21,026 nucleotides of DNA from the NCBI GenBank assembly GCA_041742355.1, contig JBGSIV010000092.1, forward strand, positions 1-21,026, written 5' to 3'. Positions 1 through 20,408 of this stretch are shown here, piece after piece. The DNA comes from Candidatus Zixiibacteriota bacterium (GTDB lineage Bacteria > Zixibacteria > MSB-5A5 > GN15 > FEB-12). The position numbers and the translations under genes are program-made. The number at the start of each line of letters is the position of its first letter. The first letter of the stretch is position 1. The notes beneath the pieces are model-generated. The model searched no databases. It saw only the letters and a list, made by a program, of their open reading frames with translations, and had not been told where the DNA came from.

Positions 1-1520
1 TTGCCGCCCGGGGCCGCATTGGCCGCCCAGATGCCGGCGGTCTGGTACCGCTCGAGCCATGCGGCCGCCTGACGCGGATTCCTCTCGCACTCGCTCGCGA
101 TCAGCTTGTCATAAGCACCCCCGTGGCGCTCTGAAAATGCCGCCCGCATATCGACCGGCGGAAGCTGGGAACGGAGCGCCGTCAGAAGCTCGGCGGCCCG
201 CCGCCAGTGTTCGACAGCCGACTTCCGGCGTCCCTTGCGGGCATCGCGATCCCCCAGGAGTGTCATGTACTGGGCACGAACATGCGGCATCACGCGAACC
301 GCCCGATTGGTCGACAGCCGGCGGCGCGCCTCAGTATGATCGGGTCGGTCGTTCAGCAACTCCAGATCGCACAGCGCCTCCCAGAGCGGCAACCGCCCCA
401 CGGGCATACGATTCCGAAGACGGACAATGGCGCGTACGCGGTCCTCCCCGGAACGCCGCGTCAGCGCCTCGGCGACACGCACAGCCGCCAGAAATCCATC
501 GTTCCCCTCCCGGCGGAATCCTTCCTCCGCCTTCCGCAAAGCCACGCGGCTCTCCCGGACCCGCCCAAGTGCCATCAGCGCCCGGCCGAGGAAGAAGGCC
601 GCTTTGGCCCCTTCATATCGGAGTCCAAGGGCCTTGGCCCGCCGCCCGGCCCGACGAGCGGTGTCGCGGGCATCGGGGAGCAGGTTCAGGCTCAAATACG
701 TTTCTGCCCGGTCGAGCACACACAGGAGATGTTCGCGTTCCTGACCGGCTTGAAGGTAGTAATCTTCACACTCCGCCAACTCCTGCAGGGCGATATGAAA
801 CTGCCCCTCGAGCATGTGCAGCCAGGCCAGCCCGTAGAGGCAGCCGATCGCCCGCAGGGTGTGGGCATGCCGGTCGAAGATCGTGCGGGCCGATGAATAG
901 AGCTCCTCTGCCGCCGGAAAAGAGAAGAGCTGGACGAGAGTATTGGCTTCGTTGTACCGACAAAAGGCCGCCGCCAGTTCGTTCCCCTGTCCATCGAAGA
1001 ACGCGCCGGCCCGGTGATAGAGCTGCTGCGCCTCCGGGTGACGATCCATTCGGTGCAGGACATTAGCGTAGTTGACCTCTGTCTTGGCCAGATCGGCGTC
1101 GGCGTTTCGCCGCCGAAAAACCGCCATCGCCTGCCGCCCCCGCCGCAGCGCTTCGGTGTGCCGACCCATGTACATAAAGACATCGATCAAAATGCGGTCG
1201 ATCCGGGCGCGGACGAGAGGATCACGGGTCAATTGCCTCGCCTCGAGGTAGCACGTTGCCGCCGGTTCATATTTGGCCGCCACGACATAGGCCCAGCCGA
1301 GCGCGCGCAGTGCTGTCAACACCATCGATCCGCCCTGCACACGGGCCCGCCGGACAAACTGCTTCCCGAGACGCACTGCGCGCGGGGCGGACAGCTCGGT
1401 CTCCTGCCGAATCAGCCGATCACAGGCTGCCGCCAGATCTCCGGGCGGCATACCCGCCACCTTCCCCGTGCCGAGAAAGCGAAGGATCGCAGCCCCGGGA
1501 TCAACGTCGGTCGTTACCAT
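1..1520 (-). CDS. TPR-repeat protein, probable N-terminal part of a TPR-CHAT (caspase-like) protease; 3' end lies outside the window
   Basis: Manual translation from the ATG at 1520, which overlaps the upstream TAA (ATGGTAA), gives 506 codons with no stop down to base 1 (MVTTDVDPGAAILRFLG...). It has repeated TPR-like helix pairs (ALRALGWAYVVAAKYEPAATCYLEAR; LAKTEVNYANVLHRMDRHPEAQQLYHRA; AAFCRYNEANTLVQLFSFPAAEELYSSAR; CVLDRAETYLSLNLLPDARDTARRA). These are followed by AAELLTALRSQLPPVDMRAAF...AYDKLIA...AAAWLERYQTAG, resembling the TPR-to-CHAT linker. The catalytic domain itself is not visible. Confidence 0.8.
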   Translation of the reverse strand, partial: MVTTDVDPGAAILRFLGTGKVAGMPPGDLAAACDRLIRQETELSAPRAVRLGKQFVRRARVQGGSMVLTALRALGWAYVVAAKYEPAATCYLEARQLTRDPLVRARIDRILIDVFMYMGRHTEALRRGRQAMAVFRRRNADADLAKTEVNYANVLHRMDRHPEAQQLYHRAGAFFDGQGNELAAAFCRYNEANTLVQLFSFPAAEELYSSARTIFDRHAHTLRAIGCLYGLAWLHMLEGQFHIALQELAECEDYYLQAGQEREHLLCVLDRAETYLSLNLLPDARDTARRAGRRAKALGLRYEGAKAAFFLGRALMALGRVRESRVALRKAEEGFRREGNDGFLAAVRVAEALTRRSGEDRVRAIVRLRNRMPVGRLPLWEALCDLELLNDRPDHTEARRRLSTNRAVRVMPHVRAQYMTLLGDRDARKGRRKSAVEHWRRAAELLTALRSQLPPVDMRAAFSERHGGAYDKLIASECERNPRQAAAWLERYQTAGIWAANAAPGG

Positions 1521-2074
1521 GACACGCTCTCAAAGTGAACTTGTTCGTTCGGCGAAAGCAGCTCGACCGTGCGGGGCGGGCGCGCCGATGACCAGGTGAA
1601 GAACCCATCTTCCCCCGCGAGCAGGCGCTGGCGCCCGGCCTTGAGCGCGAAGTCGGTCACGACACGGCGATCACGGTACACCCGGGCGACAAACTGCCAG
1701 GCGTGGTGACGGCGCTCGCCGACAATCTCTAACGCCAGGTTGAGCGCCGCCAGCCGCAGCCGTCGCACCAGCCCCTCAGGGATATCCCGAACGGCTGCCG
1801 GTCGTTCCCGCCACGAGTCGAACACAACGCGGCCGGCGACCTTCGCGCGTACGCCCTCCGGCGGCGCCAGCAGGGGCGTATTGATCCAGCGACTGATAGC
1901 GTCCTCCGACGGTGCAACAAAGTCAACACTGCCGGCCAAAGGAAAGCGGCGCACCAACGCGAAGAACTCGCGGCACTCGGCGCATTCCTGCAGGTGTTTG
2001 CCGAGTCGCCCCGGTTCCGAGGTCGCTGCGGCGATCAATTGGGCGCGCGAAGGATGTCTGTCGGACGACTTCAT
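1514..2074 (-). CDS. Soluble zinc-finger (ZAS/zf-HC2-like) putative anti-sigma factor with a beta-rich C-terminal domain, 186 aa
   Basis: Part of track ORF 1514..2329, with the start moved to ATG 2074 (AAGGAAGGG upstream; alternative ATG at 2101) to avoid overlapping the sigma gene. It carries H7...H27xxxC31xxC34 (HPSRAQL...HLQECAEC), has no hydrophobic TM stretch, and lies directly downstream of an ECF sigma gene. Confidence 0.72.
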   Translation of the reverse strand: MKSSDRHPSRAQLIAAATSEPGRLGKHLQECAECREFFALVRRFPLAGSVDFVAPSEDAISRWINTPLLAPPEGVRAKVAGRVVFDSWRERPAAVRDIPEGLVRRLRLAALNLALEIVGERRHHAWQFVARVYRDRRVVTDFALKAGRQRLLAGEDGFFTWSSARPPRTVELLSPNEQVHFESVSW

Positions 2075-2123
2075 AATGGCGGTTCCCTTCCTTTCTGCCA
2101 TAAAGGAGCCGGACCGGCGGGAC

Positions 2124-2678
2124 TTAGTCCACCGTGTAGCCCAGCTCGTCGAGAATTTTCCGTAATCGTTTAAGACAGCGCGAGCGCAGCGGCCCCAGCG
2201 CGTTGGGGGAGAGGCCGAACTGCCGGGCGATCTCCGCGTAGGGGAGAGCGGCCGGCGAAAAAAACAGCAGCCGGACAAGCTCACGACACCGTGGCTCCAA
2301 CCGTCCCAGCGCGACCTCGAGAACCGCACGCTGCTCCAGCCGAAGCACTTCTTCGTCCGGAAGCCGGACCACCCCGGCGGCCTCGGTGTCGTTCTCCACC
2401 TGCTGTCGCGATGACTGCTGCTGACGCATCCGGATCGCCCGCCGCCGCGTCGACTGAATCAGCCAGGCCGGCAGGCGCTCGGGATCCCGCAACTTCACCC
2501 GCGTCCGATAGAGGGCCAGCCAGACCTGCTGGCCGCAGTCCTCCGCGTCGGCAACGCTCAGTCCGGCCCGAAGCGCCACTGTCATTACCAAAGCCGCATA
2601 GCGTCGGACGACCTCGGCCCAGGCCGACCGGTCTCCGTCAATAACGCGTTGCCAGAGAATGTGGATATCGTCAGTCAC
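2124..2678 (-). CDS. ECF-type (sigma-70 family group 4) RNA polymerase sigma factor
   Basis: Region 2: GDRSAWAEVVRRY...DAEDCGQQVWLALY...RLPAWL. Region 4: LEPRCRELVRLLFF...PYAEIARQFGLSPNALGPLRSRCLKRLR. The start is uncertain: GTG 2678 was chosen (TAAGG upstream, gives 184 aa); alternatives are ATG 2750 or 2789. Confidence 0.92.
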   Translation of the reverse strand: MTDDIHILWQRVIDGDRSAWAEVVRRYAALVMTVALRAGLSVADAEDCGQQVWLALYRTRVKLRDPERLPAWLIQSTRRRAIRMRQQQSSRQQVENDTEAAGVVRLPDEEVLRLEQRAVLEVALGRLEPRCRELVRLLFFSPAALPYAEIARQFGLSPNALGPLRSRCLKRLRKILDELGYTVD

Positions 2679-2868
2679 CGTCTGCCTTACGAAAGGATTG
2701 AGCGCCGCGGTATGGCCACCGAAAGAACGCACGGGTGTTCCCTTGCCCATTAATACGAAGCGCGGCGGAAAAGGCAATCCGAAGTACACGTATCGCGAAA
2801 TATATGTTGAAGGAGTGCACGAACCGGCGACGGGACGGCTCTTCTATGAAGTCGTGCCGCGCCCGGCC

Positions 2869-4230
2869 TCAGAAGCTCAGCGTGAAACAGGTCCGCTCAT
2901 CCGGCGTCGATCGGACCGTGATATTCCCGGCGTGCAGCCGCATGATCTGGCGGGCCAGCGCCAGGCCGATCCCCGTGCCCCCCTTCTTCGTCGTGAAGAA
3001 CGGTATGAACACCTTGTCCAGCGCGCTTTCGGCAATTCCGGCCCCATTGTCGATTACCTCAATCAGGGTCTTGCCGCTCCGATCAATCCAGACTCGCACT
3101 ACTATAGTGCCGTCGTTGCGGCCGTCGAGCGCCTGAATCGAATTCAGCACGAGGTTGATCAGCACCTGCTCGATCAAATCGGGATCGACCGCCAGCTCCA
3201 GTTCGGACGGGTCGATTTCACTCGTGAACCTGATATTCCCCGCCTGCAACCGGCTCTCAAGAAGGCAGCGCACACGCCCGATCAACTCGCCCGCACCCAC
3301 GAACCGAAACTGCGGCGCCGGGATCTTCGTCAGGTTTCGGTAGGCTTCGACAAAATGCAGCAACCCCTGGCTGCGCTTCTCGATTGTCGTCAAAGCCGCC
3401 GTCAGATCGGTTGCCACCTCCGGGTTGATCGCACCGTTCGCCTGGTACTCCGGCGTGGCCATCTCCCGCTCGACCAGATTGTTGACCGACCCGGCCAGCG
3501 AGGCTATCGGTGTGATCGAATTCATGATCTCGTGGGTGAGCACCCGGATGAGGTTCTGCCACGCCGCCATTTCCTGCTCGGCCAGCTCCGAACCGATGTT
3601 CTGGATCGAAACAAGCATCAGCGAGTCCGAGTCCCGCCGAATCTTGGTGGCGTGAACCGCCAGCTGCAGCGTGTCATAGTCTCCCGTCACCTTCACCAGC
3701 GCTCGCTTGCCCGCCTCCAGGCCGCGCAGCGTTTCGGGAAGCGAGGGTTCCAGCTCCTCCAGACGATCGATATTCCGCAGAAAGTTGATATTGAGAATCC
3801 GCTTGGCCGCGTGATTGATCAGCTCCACATCCCCGTTGTCGCGAAACGCAATGACCCCGACGCCGATATGCTCCACGAGCGTCTGCAGGTAACGGTACTG
3901 CTCCTCTTTCTCAGCACGCGCCTTGCGGAAATCGTCGGCCACTTCCATAAACGCCGCCGAAAGCCCCTCGAACGACCGCCCTAATCCCAGCGTGACGAAC
4001 GATTGCGAAAAGTCCTGGTGGCGGATTGCTTCCAGGAACCGCGTCAACTGCTGATTGGTGCGCTCGACAAACCGGATCAACAGCCAGATCTGGTACAACA
4101 CCAGCGCCACCAGCAGCACCGAGGTCGCCACGAGCGAGGTGCCGACCAGTGCGTACCCGCACAGGGCCATAGTCAGCGCGAGGAGGACCACGCGCACGAT
4201 CACTTGAAACCGAAAGTGCCTAAAGGCCAT
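2869..4230 (-). CDS. Sensor histidine kinase (two N-terminal TM helices, PAS-like region, HisKA, HATPase_c)
   Basis: H-box VLTHEIMNSITPI, N-box EQVLINLVLNS, G1 DNGAGI, F-box FIPFFTTK, G2 GTGIGLAL. Overlaps the regulator's 3' end by 11 bp. Confidence 0.95.
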   Translation of the reverse strand: MAFRHFRFQVIVRVVLLALTMALCGYALVGTSLVATSVLLVALVLYQIWLLIRFVERTNQQLTRFLEAIRHQDFSQSFVTLGLGRSFEGLSAAFMEVADDFRKARAEKEEQYRYLQTLVEHIGVGVIAFRDNGDVELINHAAKRILNINFLRNIDRLEELEPSLPETLRGLEAGKRALVKVTGDYDTLQLAVHATKIRRDSDSLMLVSIQNIGSELAEQEMAAWQNLIRVLTHEIMNSITPIASLAGSVNNLVEREMATPEYQANGAINPEVATDLTAALTTIEKRSQGLLHFVEAYRNLTKIPAPQFRFVGAGELIGRVRCLLESRLQAGNIRFTSEIDPSELELAVDPDLIEQVLINLVLNSIQALDGRNDGTIVVRVWIDRSGKTLIEVIDNGAGIAESALDKVFIPFFTTKKGGTGIGLALARQIMRLHAGNITVRSTPDERTCFTLSF

Positions 4231-5617
4231 ACTTCTGTATGCGTCGGTAGAGGGAAGTCCGCGTCAACCCCAGTTCCCGGGCGGCATGGCTCAGGTTACC
4301 GTCGTGCTTGGCCAGCACCTTTCGAATAACCGTCCGCTCCACTTCCTCCAGATGCAGTTCCTTGAACACCAGCCCCGTGTTCTTGTCAGTCGGCCCATAC
4401 AGGAGGAAATCGCCGGGGGAGAGGACATTCCCGTCGGTCATGATCACCGCCCGCTCAATCGCATGCTGCAACTCGCGGACATTCCCCGGCCAGGCATAGT
4501 GCTCCAGCCGCTTGACCGTCCCCGCCGACAGCCGCTTGACCGTCTTGTGGTAGCGCCGGCAGTAGACCTTCAGAAAGTGGTCGGCCAGCGGCGCAATGTC
4601 CTCAATCCGCTCCCGTAGCGGCGGGAGCTGTATCTGGATCGTATTGATGCGGTAGAGCAAATCCTGGCGAAATCGCTGCTGCTGGACCATCTCATGAATC
4701 GGCATGTTCGTGGCGCTGATCAGCCGAATGTCAATCGCCGCCGCCCGGTTTGAACCGAGCCGCGTCACCGTCCGCTCTTGCAGCACCGTCAGCAGTTTCG
4801 CCTGCAGCCGCGGCGGCAGGTTGCCGATCTCGTCCAGGAACAGCGTCCCGCCCGAGGCCAGCTCAAACCGCCCCGCCCGGTCCTCCCGGGCATCGGTAAA
4901 CGCCCCTTTCGCATGCCCGAACAGCTCGCTCTCAAACAGCGTGTCGCTCACCGCCCCCATGTCAACCCCGACAAAGATCTGCCCCGCCCGTTGCGACTGA
5001 CGATGCAGCGCCCGCGCCACCAGCTCCTTGCCCGTGCCGTTCTCGCCGAGGATCAGCACATTGGCCTCCGTCGGCGCCACCCGTTCAATCGTATCGAACA
5101 CTTGCCGCATCGCCGGAGAGACCCCGATAAACTCGCAGAACGGCTGATCGAGCGTCTCCACCAGGTGCTGCTGACGTTCCGTCAGCACTCGCGCCTGCTC
5201 ATTCGACCGCCGCAGCTTCATCGCCGCCGACAACGTCGCCAGCAGCTTCTCGTTCTGCCACGGCTTGAGCACAAAGTCCGTCGCCCCCGCCTTTATCGCC
5301 CGCACCGCCAGATCGACATCGCCAAACGCCGTGAAGAGCACGATCACTGCCGACGGATCAATGGCCAGCGTCCGCTCCAGCCAGAAGAACCCCTCCTCGC
5401 CGCTCGACACATCGCGCGCGAAATTCATGTCCAGCAGGATCACATCGTACCGCTCGTTCTGCAGAAGCGCAGGGAGACGCTCCGGGCGCGTTTCGGTGTG
5501 AACCAGGGCAAAGTGCTGCTTCAGAAGCAGCCGGGCGGCTTGCAGCACGTCCTCGTCGTCATCGACAACGAGCACGCGGCCAGTCTTCTCCGAAGCTGAT
5601 ACCGGCTTGTCGCTCAT
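4220..5617 (-). CDS. NtrC-family sigma54-dependent response regulator (REC-AAA+-Fis HTH)
   Basis: REC: VLVVDDD, LLDMNF, TAFG, FVLKPW. AAA+: Walker [24 protein letters not shown], Walker [49 protein letters not shown]. Start is ATG 5617 (GGGA upstream) or 5629. Confidence 0.96.
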
Positions 5618-5712
5618 CGATCGTCCCATATGCGCGTGTACGCGCGACAGTGGAGGGAAGTTTCCAGTAAGTTCTTATTCCGGCTACAGATACACAAGCC
5701 AAATCGCGTCAA

Positions 5713-5753
5713 AAGTGTCCGAAAACGAACACTTGGTGTACGCCTGCGGATGA
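5713..5753. promoter_or_regulatory. Two tandem palindromic enhancer-like sites, probable binding sites of the divergent sigma54 activator
   Basis: AAGTGTCCG-AAAA-CGAACACTT (5713-5734, one mismatch) and GTGTACG-CCTG-CGGATGA (5736-5753). The sites are offset by 21 bp and lie about 80-120 bp upstream of the predicted sigma54 start site. Confidence 0.6.
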
Positions 5754-5784
5754 ATTGCCACCCAAATCCGTCGCATGCGACAGC

Positions 5785-5794
5785 TAACCCGTTG
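5785..5794 (-). promoter_or_regulatory. IHF-like DNA-bending site core
   Basis: The minus strand reads CAA-CGGG-TTA, the core of WATCAANNNNTTR, located between the enhancer-like sites and the -24/-12 box. The WAT part does not match. Confidence 0.3.
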
Positions 5795-5804
5795 CCACAC
5801 AACA

Positions 5805-5821
5805 TTGGCACACCATTTGAT
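5805..5821 (+). promoter_or_regulatory. Sigma54 (-24/-12) promoter of the transporter operon
   Basis: TTGGCAC-ACCAT-TTGAT versus consensus TGGCAC-N5-TTGCW. Spacing is correct, with GA instead of GC at -12. It is adjacent to a divergent sigma54 activator gene. Confidence 0.75.
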
Positions 5822-5835
5822 ATACAAATAGTCAT

Positions 5836-7143
5836 ATGCAATACCCTGTCGACAAAGAACCGGCCGGCAACTTGGACCTCCCCCAGTCCGGCATGGACCG
5901 AATCATCCCCCGGAAGAAGTGGACGCGCAAACGCCTCCTCTGGTGGGGGGGAAGCACGTGTGTCATACTCGCCGCCGTCGCTCTCTTCTTGTTTGCCGAC
6001 ACCCGCTCGTCCCTCAATGTCGAACAGGAGAAAATCACTGTTGCCGCCGTCGCCCATGCCCCTTTCCTCGAATTCATCCCCATCACCGGCGCGGTGCAGC
6101 CGATCAAGACCGTTTACATGGACGCCCTCGATGGCGGCCGCATCGAAGCGATTTACGTCGAGGAAGGCGCGTTCGTTGAACAGGGCGATTCCCTCCTGCT
6201 TATGGCCAACACAAACGTGCAGATGGAATTGATGTTCCGCGAAGCCGATCTGTACGACCAGATGAACAGCCTGCGGGCAACCCGCCTTGCGATGGAACAG
6301 AACCGGCTCTCCCTGAGCCAGCAGGCGGCCGAAGTTGCCTACCAGATCGGCCTGCAGACGCGCAACTTCGATCGCGCCAAAACGCTCCGGGAGAAGAACC
6401 TCGTCTCCGACGAGGAATTCCGCCGCGCCAAAGAAGACTTCGACTACTGGACCACCCGGCAGACACTCGTCGCCGAAAGCCAGCGTCAGGATTCGATCAT
6501 GCGCCAGCTGCAGATCGAACAACTCGAGCAGTCTATCGTGCGGATGCAGCAGAATGTCTCTATCGTCAAAGAGAAGTTCAACAACCTCGTGCTCCGCGCT
6601 CCGATCAGCGGCCAGCTGTCTTCCCTCAACGCCGAGATCGGCGAACTCAAACCGGCCGGCATCCGCCTCGGCCAGATCGACGTCCTCGACAGCTACAAAC
6701 TCCGCGCCTCCGTCGACGAATACTACGTCAGCCGCGTCGTGACCGGCCTTCTCGGCGACTGCGAAATCGGCGGCGCGTCCTACAAGCTATCCGTCCGAAA
6801 GGTCTTCCCCGAAATCAGGGACAGCCGCTTCGAAATCGACCTCGTCTTCGACGGCCCCACACCACCGACCATCCGCCGCGGCCAGTCGATCCAGATCCGC
6901 CTGGCCCTCGACGAACCCACCACCACCCTCACCATCCCCCGAGGCGGCTTCTACCAGACTACCGGCGGCAACTGGATCTACGTCCTCGACCAATCCGGCG
7001 ACTTCGCCGTCCGACGCCCCATCCGCCTGGGCCGGCAGAACCCCACCACCTATGAAGTGCTTGAGGGCCTCGAACCCGGCGAACGCGTAATAACCTCGTC
7101 GTACGACAACTACGGCGACTTCGAAAAACTGGTACTCAGGTAA
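5836..7143 (+). CDS. Efflux periplasmic adaptor (membrane fusion protein, MacA/HlyD-like)
   Basis: Basic N-terminus plus one TM helix, lipoyl halves (GGRIEAIYVEEGAFVEQGD; LRAPISGQL), long coiled coil, and C-terminal EVLEGLEPGERVI. The start may be ATG 5893 (MDRIIPRKKW), because 5836 is only a few nt from the predicted transcription start. Confidence 0.92.
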   Translation: MQYPVDKEPAGNLDLPQSGMDRIIPRKKWTRKRLLWWGGSTCVILAAVALFLFADTRSSLNVEQEKITVAAVAHAPFLEFIPITGAVQPIKTVYMDALDGGRIEAIYVEEGAFVEQGDSLLLMANTNVQMELMFREADLYDQMNSLRATRLAMEQNRLSLSQQAAEVAYQIGLQTRNFDRAKTLREKNLVSDEEFRRAKEDFDYWTTRQTLVAESQRQDSIMRQLQIEQLEQSIVRMQQNVSIVKEKFNNLVLRAPISGQLSSLNAEIGELKPAGIRLGQIDVLDSYKLRASVDEYYVSRVVTGLLGDCEIGGASYKLSVRKVFPEIRDSRFEIDLVFDGPTPPTIRRGQSIQIRLALDEPTTTLTIPRGGFYQTTGGNWIYVLDQSGDFAVRRPIRLGRQNPTTYEVLEGLEPGERVITSSYDNYGDFEKLVLR

Positions 7144-7166
7144 CCGACACATAAAGGAACCCGGCC

Positions 7167-7892
7167 ATGCCTTCCACCGGAATGTTGCGCGCAGACGTAC
7201 CCATGATCCACACGGCGTCGCTCTGCAAGCTCTATACGACCGAAGAGGTGGAAACCTCCGCCCTCAACAACGTCAACATCGACATTCTCCCCGGCGAATT
7301 CGTCTCCATCATGGGCCCCTCCGGCTGCGGCAAGTCGACCCTCCTGAACATCCTCGGCCTGCTGGACAACCCCTCCTCGGGAAGCTACCGCTTCATGGGC
7401 GCCGAGGTCGCAAAGTTCGGCGAGCGGGAACGGGCCAACCTCCGCAAACGGAACATCGGCTTCGTCTTCCAGAGCTTCAACCTCATCGACGAACTGACCG
7501 TCTTCGAAAACGTCGAACTCCCGCTCCTCTACCTCGGCGTTTCCGCCAGCGACCGAAAGCGGCAGGTCGAGGAAACCCTCGAACGCATGAACCTGATGGC
7601 CCGCCGTAACCACTTCCCGCAGCAACTCTCCGGCGGCCAGCAGCAGCGCGTCGCCGTCTCCCGCGCCATCATCGCCAATCCGTCACTCATCCTCGCCGAC
7701 GAACCCACCGGCAACCTCGACACCGCCCACGGCGACGAAGTCATGAAGCTCCTCACCGACCTGCACGAAGCCGGCACCACCATCGTCATGGTCACGCACT
7801 CGCCCGCCTACGCCGACTACGGCACGCGGACAATCCACCTGCTCGACGGCAAGGTCGTGACCGAAAATATCCTCCGCGCCCACCGCGCGTGA
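7167..7892 (+). CDS. ABC transporter ATP-binding protein (LolD/MacB-type)
   Basis: Walker A GPSGCGKS, Q-loop GFVFQSFNL, signature LSGGQQQRV, Walker B ILADEPTGNLD, H-switch MVTH. AAGGA precedes ATG 7167 (alternative start 7203). Confidence 0.96.
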   Translation: MPSTGMLRADVPMIHTASLCKLYTTEEVETSALNNVNIDILPGEFVSIMGPSGCGKSTLLNILGLLDNPSSGSYRFMGAEVAKFGERERANLRKRNIGFVFQSFNLIDELTVFENVELPLLYLGVSASDRKRQVEETLERMNLMARRNHFPQQLSGGQQQRVAVSRAIIANPSLILADEPTGNLDTAHGDEVMKLLTDLHEAGTTIVMVTHSPAYADYGTRTIHLLDGKVVTENILRAHRA

Positions 7893-7939
7893 GACCGTGA
7901 ACCCGTCCCGGATGGACGGCCAGTGAAAGCAATAGGACT

Positions 7940-10294
7940 ATGCTGAAGCACTATATCCGCATAACCATTCGGCAATTCTCGCGACACCGCATCTCCACCG
8001 CCATCAGCCTCATCGGGCTCGCCGTGGCCATCGCCTGCGGGTTGCTCGTTCTCGCCTTCGTCCGCCACGAAAAGAGCTTCGACCGCTTCCACGAACACGC
8101 CGACCGGATTGTTCGCGTCTATGAAAAACAGGTCTACCCGACCGGCGACCTCTGGGTGGCCGTGACCCCCTACCCGCTGGCCCCAGCCCTCCAGCGTGAT
8201 TTCTCCGAGATAGAAGCGGCCGTCCGAGTCTACTACGGCCGCCAGTTGATCGTCAGCCGGGGAACCGACCGCTTCCTCCAGTACCCGCTCTTTGCCGACA
8301 GCCAGTTCTTCCGCCTCTTCTCCTATCGCTTCCGCGCCGGTGATCCTGCGACCGCTCTCGCCCTGAAGAACTCGGTGGTCATTTCCAGCGAGGTCGCCGG
8401 GAAACTCTTCCCAGATGAGAACCCCATCGGGAAACCGATCCAGGTCAACGGCATGCCCGACCTCACCGTGACCGGCGTCCTCGATCCGCTCCCCGCGAAC
8501 ACCCACCTGCGATTCGACCTGCTCGTCTCACTTCCCACTGTCAGCGACACCTGGCCGCCCGAGCAGAAAGAAGCCTGGGGAACCAACGCTTTCGTCACCT
8601 ACCTCCTGCTCGCCCCGGCGGTCAACCGCGCCGATTTCGATGCCCGCCTCGAGGGCAGTCTTAAAAAATACCGCGATGGCCAGGGGACCACGACTCTGTA
8701 TCCCCAGCCCTTGACCGACATCCACCTTGGGCCGTCGTTCGTTGCCGACAACGCGCAGCGCTCCGACCCCCAGCGAATTTCCCTCTTCATCTTTGCCGCC
8801 GTTCTTGTTCTCCTCATTGCCGGCCTGAATTTCGTCAACCTTGCGACCGCCCAGGCCAACCTGCGCTTCCGCGAATTGGGCGTCCGTAGCTGCCTCGGCG
8901 CCGCCCTCGGTGACCTGCGCCGACAGATCCTCTGCGAAACCGCCATCATCACCGGCCTTGCTTCCCTTTTGGCTCTTGCCATTGGAGAACTTGCCTACCC
9001 GCTCGGACAGAGCCTTTTCGGGACCTCGTTCCCCCGACAGGACCTGCTGAGCCTCCCGAGCTTTGCCGCCCTCGTCGCCGGCTGGATCCTCATCTCACTT
9101 GCAATCGGAACCTACCTCGGCCTTATCACCACCCGACGCACTACCATACGGTGGCTCAAGGTCCAGCCCTCCGGCCGAAGTCTCGTTCGCACCGTTCTCG
9201 TCATCTGTCAGTTCGTCGTCTCAATCGGCATGATCCTCGTCGCCCTCGTCATGGTCCGCCAGCAGAACCTCGCCATGGCCACCCGCCTCGGCGCCTCCGG
9301 TGAACAGATCCTCATCGTACCGCTCCGAAGCGATGACACCAGGGAGAAGACCGAGACTCTTCGCCAGGCCCTGCGAGCCGTCACCGGTGTCAAAGCCGTC
9401 ACCGCACTCGATCAGATTCCAAACGATATCGAGAACTCCTCCACCTTCGATTGGGAGGGCCAGCCCCCCGACCAGACCTTCCTCCTCAATGTATGCGGCG
9501 CCGATGAACACTTCTTCGCGACCTTTGGTGTTCGCCTGACCGAAGGCCGTGCCTACACCACCACCGAACAAGATGTCTGCATCCTCAATGAGGCGGCCGT
9601 CCGCAAGATCGGCTGGGACGATCCGATCGGCAAGGTGATCGGCTCGGGCCCCGATGCCCGTGCGACCGTCGTCGGCGTCGTCGAGGACTTTCACTTCACC
9701 TCTCTGCGCAATGAAATCGCCCCGCTTGTCATGTTCCCGCGCGAATCGCCGTCGGCCTACGGCCTTTTGGCGGTCAGCCTCGACCCGAATGACATCGGCG
9801 CCGCCGGCCGCGAAATCGAAAAGCGGTTCACGCAGATCTGCCCCGCGACGCCGTACTCCTCGTCGTTCTTCGACGAAACCTTCGCACGGCTCTATGCCGA
9901 GGAGATCCGCGCCCAGAAGCTCGTCGGCGCCTTCGCCGCTCTGGCTATCCTCCTGGCCTGCCTCGGACTCTACGGCCTCGCCATCTTCAGCCTCCAGCGC
10001 CGCACCAAGGAAATGGGCATTCGCAGAGTCTTCGGCGCCTCCATGCGCAACATCATCTCCCTCCATACCCGCGAACACGTCATCTGGCTCATCGCGGCCA
10101 ACGCCGTCGGCCTGACCCTCGGCCTCCTCGTCAGCCGGCACTGGCTGGAGCGTTTTGCCTACCGCACCTCTATCCCGTGGTGGCTGCTGGCTGCGGTCGC
10201 CGCTGCCTCCGTGCTCCTGGTCGCGCTGACCGTGGGCATCCAAACCATCCGCGCCGCCCGAACCAAACCGGTGGAATCACTGCGCTACGAATAA
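7940..10294 (+). CDS. ABC transporter permease, duplicated MacB-PCD/FtsX architecture (784 aa)
   Basis: Starts MLKHYIRITIR, contains SFDRFH, two large extracytoplasmic domains, FtsX-type motifs RFRELGVRSCLGA and RTKEMGIRRVFGA, and ends PVESLRYE. Confidence 0.94.
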   Translation: MLKHYIRITIRQFSRHRISTAISLIGLAVAIACGLLVLAFVRHEKSFDRFHEHADRIVRVYEKQVYPTGDLWVAVTPYPLAPALQRDFSEIEAAVRVYYGRQLIVSRGTDRFLQYPLFADSQFFRLFSYRFRAGDPATALALKNSVVISSEVAGKLFPDENPIGKPIQVNGMPDLTVTGVLDPLPANTHLRFDLLVSLPTVSDTWPPEQKEAWGTNAFVTYLLLAPAVNRADFDARLEGSLKKYRDGQGTTTLYPQPLTDIHLGPSFVADNAQRSDPQRISLFIFAAVLVLLIAGLNFVNLATAQANLRFRELGVRSCLGAALGDLRRQILCETAIITGLASLLALAIGELAYPLGQSLFGTSFPRQDLLSLPSFAALVAGWILISLAIGTYLGLITTRRTTIRWLKVQPSGRSLVRTVLVICQFVVSIGMILVALVMVRQQNLAMATRLGASGEQILIVPLRSDDTREKTETLRQALRAVTGVKAVTALDQIPNDIENSSTFDWEGQPPDQTFLLNVCGADEHFFATFGVRLTEGRAYTTTEQDVCILNEAAVRKIGWDDPIGKVIGSGPDARATVVGVVEDFHFTSLRNEIAPLVMFPRESPSAYGLLAVSLDPNDIGAAGREIEKRFTQICPATPYSSSFFDETFARLYAEEIRAQKLVGAFAALAILLACLGLYGLAIFSLQRRTKEMGIRRVFGASMRNIISLHTREHVIWLIAANAVGLTLGLLVSRHWLERFAYRTSIPWWLLAAVAAASVLLVALTVGIQTIRAARTKPVESLRYE

Positions 10295-10309
10295 ACGGAA
10301 AGCGAACCG

Positions 10310-10372
10310 ATGCTGCGTCACTATTTCTTTATAGGCCTGCGCCCTGAACCGATGAGGACCGACATATGCTGA
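10310..10372 (+). pseudogene. Probable remnant (first ~11 codons) of a third permease gene
   Basis: ATG CTG CGT CAC TAT TTC TTT ATA GGC CTG CGC = MLRHYFFIGLR, matching the N-termini of both flanking permeases (MLKHYIRITIR, MLKNYFLVAIR). The 20-codon ORF stops at TGA 10370-10372. Confidence 0.55.
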
Positions 10373-12759
10373 AGAATTACTTTCTCGTCGCTATCCGCAC
10401 CCTCCGGCGCGAGCGCCTCTACGCCGCAATCAATGTGTTCGGTCTCTCTCTCGGCCTGACCGTCTGCCTCCTCGTCTTCGCCTACGTCAAGCACGAACTG
10501 TCCTATGACCGCTTTCATGAGATGTCCGACCGCCTCCACCGCATCAACTACCTCACCCCCGGCAAGGGGGGAGAGGTGCACAGATCGGCCGGCACCGCGT
10601 TCGTCCTGGCGCCGATCCTGCGCGAACAGGTGCCCGAAATCGAGGCTGTCGTGGCGACGGCCGACATCCCCGAGGCCATCGTCCGATCCCGCACCGAGAG
10701 CTTTCGCGAACCGCTCCTCTTCGCCGACTCCCAGTTCTTCTCTGTCTTCACCTTCCCGCTCGCCGAGGGAAACGCCGGAACCGCCCTGCAGGATCCCAAC
10801 TCCGTCGTTCTGAGCGAACGCCTTGCCGCCAAGTATTTCGGCGGTGAACCCGCCCTGGGCAGACAGCTGTCGATCGAGGTACGGGGGAAAACCGAGCCAT
10901 ACACCGTCACCGGCGTCTGCACGAATGTCCCCGGCAACTCCTCCTTTGAATTCGACCTCGTCGTACCGCTCCGCAAACTGTACTCGCTCTATGCCGGGAC
11001 GTTCGAATTCGGCTGGAACCTCACCTGGCCGAGCACCTGCGTCCTGCTCCGCCCCGACGCTTCGGTCACAACGGTCAACGCGAAACTCGCCGCCCTCGCC
11101 GACGGACTGCCGATCAATGCCGCCGATCAGCCCAAAGCACTCCTCGGACTCCAGCCCCTCTCCGAAATCCATTTCGATTACGGTGTCGACAACGCCCCCG
11201 CTAACGCCGGCAACCCCCGCTACTCCGCGATCCTCGCCGCCATCGCCATCCTCGTCCTCGTTCTGGCCTGCATCAACTTCACCACCCTGGCGGTCGGACG
11301 ATCCCAGACCCGGACAAAAGAAACCGGCATACGCAAAGTCCTCGGCGCCCGGCCTTCGCAACTCCTCGGCCGCTTTCTCTCCGAAGCCGCCGTCCTCTGC
11401 ACTCTCGCCACCGTCGCCGCATTCATGCTCGCCGAACTCACCCTCCCCGCATTCAACGAACTCTCCGGCAAACGCATCGAGCGCGGTTCCCTGCTTGATC
11501 TCACCACCTTCGCCGGGGCCATGATCCTGATCATCCTCACCAGCCTCCTCGCCGGCGGCTACCCGGCCCTCGTCCTCGCCCGCACCCGCCTCCGCGACAC
11601 CGTCCGGGGAAGAGCTATCCTCCTGACCGGCGGCGCCCTGACTCGCAGCCTGATTGTCCTGCAGTTCGGCCTTTCCATCGCCCTGATCGTCTCCACGCTC
11701 GTCATGGCTAATCAGCTGCGCTACATGCAGACCGTCCCCATCGGTTTCGACCGGGAACACCTCCTGCTGGTCAAACTCGCCGGTCCCGGCGCCGAAAAAC
11801 TGCGCATGGTCGAACTGCTCCGAAACGACCTCGCCGCCAACCCCGATATCGTTGCGATCAGCGCGGCCGGACGGAGCTTCGATGGCCGCGGCATGGCCAA
11901 CTCGGACTACCTCCCGGATTCGACCCTGTTCACCGCCTACTTCAACCCGGCCGACCAGTACTTCGTGCAGACCATGGGACTGTCGATCATCGAAGGCACT
12001 AACTTCACCGGCAGCACCCTCCCCGATTCGCTCGAACCCCTCCTCGTCAACGAAACCCTCGTGCGGGAATTGGGCTGGAATTCCGCTCTCGGACGGGCCG
12101 TCCCCGGCCTCAACGGCGGCCGCGTGATCGGCGTGGTCAACGACTTCAACTATCAGTCGCTTGTGGATCCCATCGCGCCGCTCGTAATCCCCTTCGCCAA
12201 CGCGGAGAGCTGGGGGGGCGATGTTCGCTATGCCTACTTCCGGCTCAAAAACGAACACCTGGGCAGGACCGTCGACGCGATCCACGGGGCCTGGCGCCGC
12301 GTCACCCCGCAACTGCCCTTTGATTACCAGTTCATGGATGAACACATCGATGCCCAGTACCGCTTCGAACAGCGCTGGTCGAAAGTGGTCGCCTACGCCT
12401 CCGGTATGGCGATCCTCGTCGCCTGCTTCGGGGCCTTCGGACTCACCGCTCTCGCCGTCGCCCGACGGCGCAAGGAAATCGGCGTCCGCAAAGTGCTCGG
12501 CGCCTCCGGCAGCCAGATCGTCCGCCTGCTCAACCGCGAATTCGTCTGGCTTGTCATCGCGGGCAACCTGCTCGCCTGGCCCGCGGCGTACTTCGTCGCG
12601 CAGAAGTGGCTGGAGGGATTCGCCTACCGCACCTCCCTGTCGGTCTGGCCGTTCCTGCTGGCCGCCGCCGCCACGCTCGTCATTGTGATTCTGACCGTCT
12701 CGGCCCAGGCCGTTCGCGCCGTGCTGGCCAACCCCGTGGAGTCCCTCCGCTACGAATGA
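10366..12759 (+). CDS. ABC transporter permease, duplicated MacB-PCD/FtsX architecture (797 aa)
   Basis: GAGGA RBS. Starts MLKNYFLVAIR, contains ELSYDRFH, RTKETGIRKVLGA and RRKEIGVRKVLGA, and ends NPVESLRYE. Paralogue of 7940..10294. Confidence 0.95.
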   Translation: MLKNYFLVAIRTLRRERLYAAINVFGLSLGLTVCLLVFAYVKHELSYDRFHEMSDRLHRINYLTPGKGGEVHRSAGTAFVLAPILREQVPEIEAVVATADIPEAIVRSRTESFREPLLFADSQFFSVFTFPLAEGNAGTALQDPNSVVLSERLAAKYFGGEPALGRQLSIEVRGKTEPYTVTGVCTNVPGNSSFEFDLVVPLRKLYSLYAGTFEFGWNLTWPSTCVLLRPDASVTTVNAKLAALADGLPINAADQPKALLGLQPLSEIHFDYGVDNAPANAGNPRYSAILAAIAILVLVLACINFTTLAVGRSQTRTKETGIRKVLGARPSQLLGRFLSEAAVLCTLATVAAFMLAELTLPAFNELSGKRIERGSLLDLTTFAGAMILIILTSLLAGGYPALVLARTRLRDTVRGRAILLTGGALTRSLIVLQFGLSIALIVSTLVMANQLRYMQTVPIGFDREHLLLVKLAGPGAEKLRMVELLRNDLAANPDIVAISAAGRSFDGRGMANSDYLPDSTLFTAYFNPADQYFVQTMGLSIIEGTNFTGSTLPDSLEPLLVNETLVRELGWNSALGRAVPGLNGGRVIGVVNDFNYQSLVDPIAPLVIPFANAESWGGDVRYAYFRLKNEHLGRTVDAIHGAWRRVTPQLPFDYQFMDEHIDAQYRFEQRWSKVVAYASGMAILVACFGAFGLTALAVARRRKEIGVRKVLGASGSQIVRLLNREFVWLVIAGNLLAWPAAYFVAQKWLEGFAYRTSLSVWPFLLAAAATLVIVILTVSAQAVRAVLANPVESLRYE

Positions 12760-12782
12760 AACCGGAACAGAGGATTATAACC

Positions 12783-13499
12783 ATGCTCTCCGCGAAAGCC
12801 GACCCGAATCGCAAATCTCCGTTGCCGGATGACAATGCCCTCATCCGCATGACCGGCATCTACCGCTACTACCAGACCGGAGCAGGGAAGACGTTCGTCC
12901 TCAACGGCATCGACCTCGCCATCCAGCCCGGCGAATTCGTCTCTATCATGGGCCCCTCCGGCGCCGGTAAATCCACCCTCCTGCACATCATCGGCCTGCT
13001 CGATGAACCCAACGACGGCGCCTACTTCCTCCTCGGGCAGGATGTCACCCGCCTCAAGGAGAAAGAACGTGCCGAGATCCACAAGCAGGCGATCGGCTTC
13101 GTCTTCCAGAGCTACCACCTCATCGACGAACTCACCGTCTCCGAAAATCTCGAGACACCCCTTCTGTACAAAGGCCTCGCCAAAGCCGAACGCAAGTCCC
13201 TCGTTGCCGACACCCTCGACCGCTTCCAGATCGTCGGCAAGAAAGACCTGTTCCCTTCCCAGCTTTCGGGCGGTCAGCAGCAACTGGTCGGCGTCGCCCG
13301 CGCGGTGATCACCAAACCGAAAATCATCCTCGCCGATGAACCCACCGGCAACCTCAACACCGCCCAGGGGGAGGAGATCATGCAGCTTTTTAAGCGGCTC
13401 AACACTGAGGGTACAACGATTATTCAGGTAACACATTCAGAGCGCAACGCCTCCTATGGCTCGCGGATCATCAACCTCATCGACGGCCGGATTGCGTAG
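12783..13499 (+). CDS. Second ABC transporter ATP-binding protein (LolD/MacB-type)
   Basis: AGAGGA RBS before ATG 12783 (the track start 12606 overlaps the permease). Motifs GPSGAGKS, GFVFQSYHL, LSGGQQQLVGVARA, ILADEPTGNLN, QVTH. Confidence 0.94.
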   Translation: MLSAKADPNRKSPLPDDNALIRMTGIYRYYQTGAGKTFVLNGIDLAIQPGEFVSIMGPSGAGKSTLLHIIGLLDEPNDGAYFLLGQDVTRLKEKERAEIHKQAIGFVFQSYHLIDELTVSENLETPLLYKGLAKAERKSLVADTLDRFQIVGKKDLFPSQLSGGQQQLVGVARAVITKPKIILADEPTGNLNTAQGEEIMQLFKRLNTEGTTIIQVTHSERNASYGSRIINLIDGRIA

Positions 13500-13646
13500 A
13501 GCTGCCGGCTGGGGAGAAGGCATGTTGGGGAACGGCTCGACCGGAAGTTTTCTTTGGCACTCCGCCCTCGCCTTGCCTACGTTACCGTAATCAGAGCCGG
13601 AACGACCGGATCTGCTTCACGCAGCACAAACAGGAGCGGTCCCGGA

Positions 13647-14579
13647 ATGGGTATCAACACCAGCATCCTCAATGCCATTGGCAACACCTCCCTCGTGCAA
13701 TTGCGCCACGTCGTGCCCGACAGCTGCGCGCCCATCTTCGTCAAACTCGAGTGGGAAAACCCCACCGGCAGCATGAAAGACCGCACTGCCCTCGCGATGA
13801 TTTCGCGCGCCGAGGAAGACGGCCGCCTCAAACCCGGCGACACCATCGTCGAATACACCGGCGGCAGCACCGGCATCTCGCTCGCCCTCGTCGCCGCCGC
13901 CAGGGGCTACCGCCTTCACATCGTCACCTCCGACGCTTTCAGCGAAGATAAACGCCGCCAGATGGCCGCTTATGGCGCGGAACTGACCCTCGTCCCCAGC
14001 GAAGGCGGCCTGACAACCAAAAAGCTCATTCTCGACATGATCGAAACCGCCCGCGCCATCGCCGACCGTCCCCACACCTACTGGACCAACCAGCTCTCCA
14101 ACACCGACAGCATCGCCGGCTACTACCCGCTCGGCGAGGAGATCTGGAGTCAGACCGATGGCCGCGTTACCGCCTTCGTCCACTGCGCCGGCACCGCCGC
14201 CTCCTCGCGCGGCGTCGCCACTATCTTGAAACGCCACAACCCGCACATCCATATCGCCGTCGTCGAACCGGCCGAATCCGCCGTCCTCTCCGGCGGCCAA
14301 CCCGGCCCGCACAAGATCGAGGGCGTCGGCATCGGCTACACGCCGCCCCTTTGGGATCCGAGCGTCGTCGATGAAATCATCCCCGTCGCCACCTCCGACG
14401 CCAAAGCCATGACCCGCCGCCTCGCCAAAGAAGAAGGCCTCTTCGCCGGGACCTCCTCCGGCGCCAACGTCATCGCCGCGCTCCGCGTTGCGGAGCGGCT
14501 AGGCCCTGACGCCACCGTCGTCACCCTCATGTGCGATTCCGGCTTGAAATACATGAGCACCGACGTGTTCCGGGCCTAG
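13647..14579 (+). CDS. PLP-dependent cysteine synthase-family (CysK/CBS-like) enzyme with atypical motifs
   Basis: CAGGAG RBS before ATG 13647. Motifs IGNTSLV, KLEWENPTGSMKDR (PLP lysine), HKIEGVG, EEGLFAGTSSGAN, DSGLKYMST. The substrate loop is EYTGGSTG and the phosphate loop is GTAAS. Confidence 0.88.
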   Translation: MGINTSILNAIGNTSLVQLRHVVPDSCAPIFVKLEWENPTGSMKDRTALAMISRAEEDGRLKPGDTIVEYTGGSTGISLALVAAARGYRLHIVTSDAFSEDKRRQMAAYGAELTLVPSEGGLTTKKLILDMIETARAIADRPHTYWTNQLSNTDSIAGYYPLGEEIWSQTDGRVTAFVHCAGTAASSRGVATILKRHNPHIHIAVVEPAESAVLSGGQPGPHKIEGVGIGYTPPLWDPSVVDEIIPVATSDAKAMTRRLAKEEGLFAGTSSGANVIAALRVAERLGPDATVVTLMCDSGLKYMSTDVFRA

Positions 14580-14593
14580 GGTCATCCGCCGAC

Positions 14594-14631
14594 CCGTCTT
14601 CTTCCGACGCTGCGTACGCCTGAGGAGACGG
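14594..14631 (+). terminator. Imperfect stem-loop after the cysteine synthase-like gene; weak terminator or RNA-stability candidate
   Basis: CCGTCTTCTT can pair with GAGGAGACGG using G-U pairs. It is followed by ACGTTCTTC, with no true poly-U tail. Confidence 0.3.
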
Positions 14632-14652
14632 ACGTTCTTCACCGCAAAGGCC

Positions 14653-14681
14653 TTGCACTCCATGCTCCCGCACGATATATT
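14653..14681 (+). promoter_or_regulatory. Sigma70-type promoter of the cco cluster
   Basis: TTGCAC-17 bp-TATATT, with the -10 box 84 bp upstream of the ccoI start, in an AT-richer intergenic region. Confidence 0.65.
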
Positions 14682-14765
14682 GGCCCAAAAGATGACTAAA
14701 GTGGGTACGTTAAATACACTTTTTGGTGTAGATTCCGCCCGCTGCGAACGTGAAGTCGTGCCACC

Positions 14766-17171: not shown

Positions 17172-17173
17172 AT

Positions 17174-17365
17174 ATGTATGTAGTAATTGTCCTCATGGGT
17201 GCCTCGCTCCTCGTCGCCGTCGGTTTCCTGCTCGCCTTCTGGTGGGCGGTCCGCTCCGGCCAGTACGATGACACCTACACGCCTGCGGTCCGAATGCTCT
17301 TCGATGACCCCGCGGCGAACAAGAAGAACAATACGAACGATAGCCATACTTCAAGGGAGAACTGA
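17174..17365 (+). CDS. ccoS: cbb3 oxidase maturation protein CcoS/FixS
   Basis: One TM helix followed by FWWAVRSGQYDD..TPAVRMLFDD. Confidence 0.95.
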   Translation: MYVVIVLMGASLLVAVGFLLAFWWAVRSGQYDDTYTPAVRMLFDDPAANKKNNTNDSHTSREN

Positions 17366-17368
17366 CGC

Positions 17369-19537: not shown

Positions 19538-19548
19538 GGGAGAGGACG

Positions 19549-19743
19549 ATGTTCTCCGACATACTCGGCAACACCGGCGGCGCTGTCCCGCTCACCCTCG
19601 CCGCGATGATCATCTTCATCGTCTGCTTCGCGGCCGTCGTCATCTGGGCCATGAAACTCGACAAGCACATCGTAAACGAAATGGCGCACCTGCCGCTCAA
19701 CGACGGCGCGGCGCCTGTGGAAGATAGAGGTAACCATGAGTGA
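19549..19743 (+). CDS. ccoQ: cbb3 oxidase small subunit CcoQ/FixQ-like
   Basis: 64 aa with a single TM helix and C-terminal MAHLPLND, located between ccoNO and ccoP. GAGGA RBS. Confidence 0.85.
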   Translation: MFSDILGNTGGAVPLTLAAMIIFIVCFAAVVIWAMKLDKHIVNEMAHLPLNDGAAPVEDRGNHE

Positions 19744-20404: not shown

Positions 20405-20408
20405 ACCT

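Follow-up and report, generated by a model that had tools for sequence, protein, structure and literature searches.

A predicted peptide-triggered proteolytic switch for an extracytoplasmic function sigma factor in Zixiibacteriota

We report here on a four-gene cassette that begins in a 21,026-nucleotide stretch of DNA (the window, which is the entire contig C92, JBGSIV010000092.1) from a Candidatus Zixiibacteriota bacterium (assembly GCA_041742355.1, genome G000). Judged from sequence comparison, the cassette has an even chance of being a peptide-triggered proteolytic switch that frees a sigma factor. An earlier note, made from the letters of the window, had described three co-oriented genes, encoding a sigma factor of the extracytoplasmic function (ECF) type, a protein with an HxxxCxxC motif and no transmembrane stretch, and an overlapping tetratricopeptide repeat (TPR) reading frame. 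All three were confirmed where they had been placed, on the minus strand. As a three-gene unit the proposal was incomplete: sigma factor, small protein and TPR-CHAT protein are real, but the fourth gene, which encodes a secreted S8 subtilase and follows the TPR-CHAT gene, had been overlooked. The genes of the cassette within the window are:

2124..2678, minus strand: ECF sigma factor, 184 amino acids, GTG start (Sigma70_r2 E 1e-9; TIGR02937 E 9e-22, above cut-off)
1514..2074, minus strand: putative soluble anti-sigma factor, 186 amino acids, in which four helices at the N terminus are followed by an FDSW strand, a flexible loop that contains Arg96, and a beta-sandwich at the C terminus
17..1520, minus strand: N-terminal ~500 amino acids of a cytoplasmic TPR-CHAT protease of ~905 amino acids (TPR_12 E 3e-13), the catalytic half lying past the contig end

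In the proposed mechanism, the subtilase would be exported and would release an octamer peptide during maturation. The octamer would re-enter the cell, with an OPT-family transporter rather than Opp as the candidate importer, and would bind the TPR domain of the cytoplasmic CHAT protease, activating it. The activated protease would cut the soluble anti-sigma factor after Arg96, the cut anti-sigma factor would be degraded, and the sigma factor would be freed. From a promoter at the 3' end of its own gene, the freed sigma factor would drive the genes for the anti-sigma factor, the TPR-CHAT protein and the subtilase, a positive feedback, and it would also switch on genes for exported proteins, DUF5666 lipoproteins among them. 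The cassette probably serves to make the production of extracellular proteins depend on density or confinement, rather than to defend against phages. More tentatively, and at somewhat less than an even chance, the cassette may represent a multi-phylum form of cell-to-cell signalling. Here the subtilase would be its own pheromone precursor, the octapeptide would be read in a pherotype-like manner by a groove of the TPR-CHAT protein, and anti-sigma proteolysis at an invariant Arg would switch on an autoinducing ECF regulon of exported proteins, a counterpart of craspase signalling outside clustered regularly interspaced short palindromic repeat (CRISPR) systems. The genome studied here holds three cassette copies with different peptides.

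The gene order is conserved. The small protein has matches in 19 of the 41 genomes of the order, and the loci anchored on it keep the order sigma, small protein, TPR-CHAT in 24 of 24 cases, with an S8 gene next in 22. Anchoring on the sigma factor gave a second, overlapping set of 71 loci, 70 of them strong, in which the small gene was found in 69, a TPR gene in 65, a full CHAT domain in 55 and an S8 gene in 53. The misses lie mostly at contig ends, with no room for CHAT in 14 loci and none for the S8 gene in 15; where there was room, one CHAT gene and two S8 genes are nonetheless absent, and masking accounts for one TPR miss. The suggestion that the trio travels together is thus upheld, the small gene standing beside the sigma gene in 69 of 70 loci. 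The record titles of these relatives name Zixiibacteriota or Ignavibacteria. The earlier note had also seen no adjacent cas genes, and had considered an S8 peptidase and cas genes as possible further partners. The S8 peptidase was found, after TPR-CHAT, but cas1 and RAMP had no match in this 93.8% complete genome and no cas model matched among 134 neighbour proteins; the cassette is not a CRISPR effector. Among the same 134 proteins (one protein per cluster, for 134 of 196 neighbour clusters), PADLOC returned five scattered matches to generic models and no recurring defence system.

The TPR gene starts at 1520, where its ATG overlaps the end of the small-protein gene by 7 bases, and runs off base 1. 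The window being a whole contig, direct extension is impossible; no overlap of C92 with other contigs of the genome was found, and no sequencing run joins base 1 to another contig. The genome contains six CHAT matches and three sigma/small-protein pairs. One paralogue set, on contig C157, is complete, with sigma factor, small protein, a TPR-CHAT protein of ~940 amino acids, an S8 subtilase with dockerin and a DUF5666 lipoprotein, whereas contigs C31 and C154 each open with a CHAT fragment, and an S8 gene or its beginning comes next. The orthologue in a locus of the same genus (L034) is a 903-amino-acid TPR-CHAT protein that is 72% identical to the window TPR protein over 503 amino acids. The C154 CHAT fragment is in turn 72% identical to this orthologue and carries the His/Cys dyad, and the C154 subtilase (1376 amino acids, secreted, with the octamer QGSIPFSD) shares 66% identity with that of L034. 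As the window TPR protein, the C154 CHAT fragment and the C154 subtilase all match L034 at 66-72% identity, the window gene most likely continues on C154. Independent support for this link comes from the window TPR residues at peptide-covarying positions, which match those of loci with C154-type peptides. C31 was rejected as the continuation: its best relatives belong to another clade (~49%) and its peptide type mismatches the window TPR residues.

A TPR array and a CHAT domain with the His/Cys dyad, the marks of a TPR-CHAT protease of clan CD, are present in the L034 orthologue, the C157 paralogue and the C154 fragment. The dyad occurs in 28 of 28 aligned CHAT domains and, by pattern, in 54 of 56 of a larger set, in which both misses show it on inspection; W-x-V-x-D is kept in most of 55 CHAT domains. 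The TPR-CHAT proteins have no N-terminal hydrophobic stretch, and a search of plasmids with TPR-CHAT gave no match. We strongly infer the CHAT domain of the window gene, which lies outside the window. The call of a CHAT domain beyond base 1 in the earlier note is in this way borne out; its proposed extension of the contig was not possible, the contig ending there, but a CHAT domain with the dyad was reached on C154 by orthology.

Some other CHAT genes differ in layout. In L045, L053, L080, L082, L090 and L119, TPR-CHAT genes are split or shortened, through either sequencing error or decay. In G000, C139:28328-30718 shows a different CHAT architecture, with the CHAT domain at the N terminus, then a hydrophobic stretch and a long C-terminal region, and C232:6477-10744 combines another ECF sigma factor, a zinc-motif anti-sigma factor with a hydrophobic segment and a TPR-CHAT protein with an export-like N terminus, a split layout resembling DdvA.

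The candidate ligand is an octamer of the pattern Q-x-S-x-x-hydrophobic-x-D, which occurs in single copy at the junction of prodomain and catalytic domain in 52 of the 53 same-strand cassette S8 proteins; the one that lacks it is a further S8 protein, of a different type. Likewise, 52 of 53 have a hydrophobic stretch at the N terminus. The octamer is absent from the 11 unlinked S8 proteins of this genome (0/11), and it was not found as a separate small gene outside S8 genes. A scan of metagenomes for three tandem copies of the octamer pattern gave at least 124 stretches, and 78 loci were examined. Among these, 24 encode S8 proteins with 3-9 copies; the other 54 were set aside, many of them being unrelated four-residue repeats. 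The 24 repeat-bearing S8 proteins comprise 15 with a sigma, small-protein, TPR or CHAT homologue in the locus, 8 that stand alone in their contig and 1 without room. In L183, three copies lie at the junction that bears the single octamer of the Zixibacterial subtilases, and in most of the others the array lies inside the catalytic domain.

In L216, an open reading frame (2869-3651) that is not an S8 gene carries tandem octamers directly upstream of a frame with a weak S8 match, and is possibly a stand-alone peptide precursor. The cassette subtilases of L037, L046 and L135 have highly variable C-terminal cargo (beta-helix, TSP3, dockerin, and a tail like that of FlgD or type IX secretion system substrates) and reach ~2180 amino acids.

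The octamer co-varies with one face of the TPR array, which we predict to be its binding groove:

603..1205, minus strand: conserved TPR face, predicted peptide-binding groove (residues 106-306), with a 40-residue ladder and peptide-covarying positions

The ladder includes R106, K146, N150, N153, R157, N190, D270, E273, E303 and K306, and the peptide-covarying positions are 186, 223, 226, 260 and 279. The ladder is kept in five distant TPR-CHAT proteins from loci with repeat-bearing S8 proteins. Octamer distance tracks that of TPR residues 140-310 with a partial r of 0.45 (43 loci) or 0.43 (33 de-duplicated loci) after removal of sigma, small-protein and rest-of-TPR-CHAT distance; none of 333 control windows, each 8 columns wide and taken from these subtilases, reaches the partial r of the octamer. 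On a tree of 55 loci, peptide position 4 changed about 10 times, and the best-coinciding TPR columns were 186, 223 and 226, which rank 1, 4 and 7 of 1342 and belong to the Asn-ladder face. Peptide Arg2 was lost twice, separately, and each time Asp260 was lost as well.

If the octamer served only in the structure or autoprocessing of this subtilase subfamily, or marked an Asp cut site, the co-variation would reflect shared ancestry, and the cassette would be a protease-gated ECF switch with some other cytoplasmic trigger. Such an account would fit the single octamer placed where subtilases normally process their prodomain and the co-inheritance of all four cassette genes (pairwise distance correlations 0.70-0.78). 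We nevertheless regard it as quite improbable: the octamer tracks the TPR better than its own catalytic domain, as no other 8-column window does, it is repeated up to nine times and relocated in distant cassettes, and subtilase and CHAT protease are predicted to reside in different compartments.

The earlier note had assigned the TPR ligand to a stress or phage protein. This is not supported: the co-variation of octamer and TPR face and the presence of the octamer in cassette subtilases make a self-encoded peptide the likelier ligand. In our view it is highly improbable that the cassette is a stand-alone sensor of phage or stress, with a TPR domain that recognises a phage protein as in CRISPR-linked protease/sigma effectors. 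Its parts do resemble Csx29/Csx30/CASP-sigma and DdvA/DdvS, but the lack of cas1, RAMP and recurring defence genes described above, a TPR face that is conserved and co-varies with a self peptide, and a predicted regulon of secreted enzymes and lipoproteins all argue against it.

The small protein would be the component that holds the sigma factor in the peptide-triggered switch. Two of its features are:

1973..2056, minus strand: zinc anti-sigma-type motif H7-x19-H27-x3-C31-x2-C34, optional in the family
1787..1789, minus strand: Arg96, candidate P1 residue for CHAT, present in 152 of 152 family members, in a loop with a predicted local distance difference test score (pLDDT) of 54

The protein has no transmembrane stretch (maximal 19-residue hydropathy 1.05). 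Its predicted structure comprises helices 10-18, 21-30, 32-43 and 57-69, a strand 77-86, a low-confidence loop 91-100 and a beta-sandwich. The sole PDB match of the family profile is the anti-sigma factor RsiW (E 0.009), from the zinc motif to the fourth helix, and the layout is that of class I zinc anti-sigma (ZAS) factors, namely H-x3-C-x2-C with an upstream ligand, a three-helix bundle with a fourth helix, and a gene at position +1. The zinc motif is found in 82 of 103 full-length representatives, 80 of them with the upstream His/Cys, and is missing in 21; it is absent, too, from the C251 paralogue, and zf-HC2 matches weakly in 3 of 28 family members. The small protein is thus likely an anti-sigma factor with an anti-sigma-like N terminus. 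Of the soluble zinc-finger anti-sigma factor first envisaged, the absence of a transmembrane stretch and the RsiW-like N terminus hold up, but the zinc motif is not universal.

Arg96 is a candidate CHAT cut site, given its invariance in a flexible loop and the precedent of the Arg-specific CHAT protease HetF, which cuts PatU3 after Arg117 (PMC9457339). The counterpart of Arg96 is invariant in the actinobacterial +1 family, too. Pfam and NCBIfam contain no family for the small protein, and Foldseek found nothing at E 0.001. A structural aligner returned generic beta-sandwiches only (best Z 8.4, root-mean-square deviation 2.4, 85 aligned), so that no function can be deduced from the fold. At E 0.001 the family profile collects 1200 representatives, and most look-alike clusters come from Acidobacteriota. 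No natural fusion of sigma factor and small protein was present among five longer sigma matches inspected; an apparent fusion in L042/L118 was rejected as an effect of masked bases.

The conserved core of the small-protein family is the FDSW...R loop with the beta-sandwich, not the zinc domain. This would suit a securin-like adaptor or pseudo-substrate inhibitor of the CHAT protease, or an uncleaved sigma partner, with the protease target elsewhere, as would the lack of a zinc motif in the actinobacterial counterpart (0 of 120) and the description of ECF54 without an anti-sigma factor. We consider this alternative unlikely in the light of the +1 position of the small gene in 69 of 70 loci, the RsiW-like domain with four helices, and the predicted transcription of the gene from the promoter assigned to the sigma factor.

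That promoter lies at the end of the sigma gene:

2105..2130, minus strand: predicted promoter of the window sigma factor, GGACTAA, 15 bases, CTCC, overlapping the sigma stop codon and facing the downstream genes

The family motif GTAC[GT]AA ... CTCT is found at the 3' end of the sigma gene, in or out of frame, in 66 of 67 distinct loci, with scores of 9-23 bits compared to at most 6.5 in control windows inside the sigma gene. Of 48 sigma genes, just 1 has the motif ahead of it. Taken by itself, the window gives no significant result for the motif, with 2 matches where 0.45 are expected, a count reached by 10 of 100 shuffles. Out of sample, the motif stands before 12 of 18 DUF5666 lipoprotein genes and before ten genes for exported proteins (second subtilases, and CHRD- and dockerin-bearing proteins), compared to only 3 of 216 other neighbours. 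The predicted output of the sigma factor is thus exported proteins together with the anti-sigma factor, protease and subtilase themselves. A genome-wide scan was mostly noise below the top matches (77 sites above 13 bits, many inside open reading frames). Several relatives have a divergent motif copy ahead of a secreted-protein gene, and the window contains one such copy:

2817..2844, plus strand: second, divergent promoter-like copy, score 14.3, with no same-strand gene directly behind, weak alone

At L053 9068+ and 12202+, L054 5966- and 2838-, and L052 6293+, a promoter copy leads into a similar non-coding stretch of ~150-200 bases, after which comes a terminator-like hairpin; such units are possible small RNAs of the regulon.

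Another reading of the co-variation places the octamer inside the cell. As a monitor of secretion or maturation, the TPR would read the octamer on the unexported precursor in the cytoplasm, or the peptide would switch the protease off in a negative feedback; the cassette would then adjust the output of exported proteins instead of gauging cell numbers. The same co-variation would be expected, the exported-protein regulon would make sense, and neither Opp nor a linked importer, which most cassette genomes lack, would be needed. We think this rather unlikely, since a released peptide is suggested by tandem D-to-Q repeats that relocate to another subtilase loop, and one with two free ends by a TPR face that is acidic at one end and basic at the other, and since characterised CHAT proteases are inactive until triggered (PMC10028731, PMC11506125).

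Several points weigh against a peptide-triggered switch as proposed here. For import, no member of the Opp/Dpp binding-protein family turned up in this genome, and only weak partial matches did so in 3 of 19 cassette-bearing genomes, whereas 40 of 41 genomes have OPT-family genes, whether or not they have the cassette, and unlinked to it. The co-variation comes from 33-55 related loci of few clades; residues 140-310 were picked after a first coarse scan, the control windows overlap each other, the p values for face versus non-face (0.007-0.026) are rough, and on the 55-locus tree one small-protein column ranked second. The RsiW match is weak and mostly carried by the zinc motif that 21 of 103 members lack, and some zinc-less small proteins have a basic, low-complexity N terminus instead. 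A cut at Arg96 would spare the sigma-binding helices 1-4, so that a later degradation step must be assumed. The bit scores of the promoter come from a matrix trained on the same 3'-of-sigma sites that it scores, and the join of C92 and C154 is made by orthology, with no bridging sequence. Finally, the actinobacterial S8 protein (one locus) has neither the octamer nor a signal-like N terminus, and the peptide model may therefore not extend to ECF54. As a general observation on the 41 genomes searched, most have no member of the Opp/Dpp binding-protein family and nearly all have OPT-family transporters.

The ECF54 group is actinobacterial and has a carboxypeptidase-regulatory-like protein at +1, a subtilase, a TPR-CHAT protein, no anti-sigma factor and a GTATCAG/CTCC promoter (PMC7826278), and a review proposes its proteolytic control (PMC8999054). 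Both systems comprise an ECF sigma factor, a +1 beta-sandwich protein, a subtilase and a TPR-CHAT protein, with a similar -10 element (CTCC/CTCT). By contrast, ECF54 is 100% actinobacterial, whereas the loci described here come from records titled Zixiibacteriota or Ignavibacteria; it is said to be without an anti-sigma factor, whereas most +1 proteins here have a zinc anti-sigma-type domain; and its -35 element is GTATCAG rather than GTAC[GT]AA. The secreted subtilase with its octamer, the single operon and the promoter at the 3' end of the sigma gene likewise set the present cassette apart. We examined a Nonomuraea locus (L130), which has an ECF54-type layout with the published GTATCAG/CTCC motif, and the sigma factor of which is 36% identical to that of the window. 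The Nonomuraea +1 family and the Zixibacterial family match with a profile-profile probability of 65% over 91 columns (pairwise E 6e-5) and share DS...R; an HMM-to-sequence search between the two, with 16 bits at best, fell short of significance on the scale of a database, so that the link comes from profile-profile comparison only. The Nonomuraea +1 protein is predicted to have helices, a low-confidence loop and the same generic beta-sandwich, and no zinc motif occurs in 120 members. By the 36% sigma identity and the gene context, the cassette appears to be a new-phylum variant of the published ECF54-type neighbourhood. Similar neighbourhoods without a characterised mechanism had been expected in other bacteria: a similar gene set does exist, but it had already been published as the ECF54 context, with proteolytic control proposed.

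The mechanism would resemble RRNPP systems at its input and craspase at its output. Reading of re-imported peptides by RRNPP TPR receptors (Rap, Rgg, NprR, PlcR, PrgX) is established (PMC4873490). The proposed cassette shares with them a short secreted peptide, predicted re-import, a cytoplasmic TPR reader and co-variation of receptor and peptide, but its output would be a caspase-like protease instead of a DNA-binding or phosphatase domain, its precursor would be a subtilase instead of the product of a small dedicated gene, Opp was not found, and the phylum is another. The likeness concerns the peptide/TPR arrangement; TPR homology is not part of it. In craspase (Csx29/Csx30/CASP-sigma, type III-E; PMC10028731), a cytoplasmic TPR-CHAT protease is gated allosterically through its TPR and cuts a sigma inhibitor; here, however, Cas7-11 and CRISPR RNA are lacking, the predicted trigger is a peptide and the putative inhibitor is a 186-amino-acid zinc anti-sigma-like protein. 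At E 0.01, a PDB sequence search gave no match to Csx29. In Myxococcus xanthus, DdvA/DdvS (PMC11506125) also joins a zinc anti-sigma domain, TPR-CHAT and an ECF sigma factor in one circuit, but DdvA is one transmembrane protein with a periplasmic TPR-CHAT that controls a defence island, whereas the parts are separate and soluble here. HetF/PatU3 of Anabaena (PMC9457339) resembles the cassette in having a regulatory CHAT protease, which in the case of HetF cuts after Arg, and differs in a substrate that is no ECF anti-sigma factor. SAVED-CHAT/PCaspase/PCc-sigma (bioRxiv 2023.06.23.546230) has a regulatory CHAT protease, too, but a cyclic oligoadenylate trigger.

TPR-CHAT proteases are widespread and little known (PMC11506125), and the regulation of ECF54 is an open entry in the ECF classification. 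A search of the literature, with subscription papers and bioRxiv supplements outside its coverage, found no description of the peptide, the anti-sigma factor or the mechanism. New here are the RsiW-like small protein with its invariant Arg96, the 3'-of-sigma motif shared with secreted-protein genes, and the TPR-covarying octamer. A candidate ligand, co-varying receptor residues, a cut site and a promoter are now named, so that a synthetic 8-mer and three purified proteins would be enough for a test of the circuit. If true, it would take TPR-peptide signalling beyond Firmicutes, couple it to a caspase-like output and offer orthogonal peptide-activated proteases. If only the protease-gated switch holds, the cassette is a new-phylum variant of a published neighbourhood.

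G000 also contains a divergent fourth cassette subtype (L139, at C227:188-3174), with a sigma factor, a zinc-less small protein with DS...R and an S8 protein with a variant Q...D junction. The matching TPR-CHAT gene sits apart at C80:10546-13314, and intact versions of this subtype adjoin the main cassette in L091 and L118.

The end of the window at base 1 is marked by one further feature:

1..16, strand not assigned: probable mis-assembled contig tail

Two other sequencing runs cease to follow the window at base 17, and their loose ends are much alike; the longer one, read in frame, resembles the next residues of the orthologue; bases 1-16 are therefore probably an assembly tail error. At 2869-21026 the window has genes for a histidine kinase and a sigma-54 response regulator, a MacB-type exporter, a pyridoxal phosphate-dependent cysteine-synthase-like enzyme, a heavy-metal P-type ATPase and a cbb3 oxidase, ordinary neighbours that lie outside the cassette.

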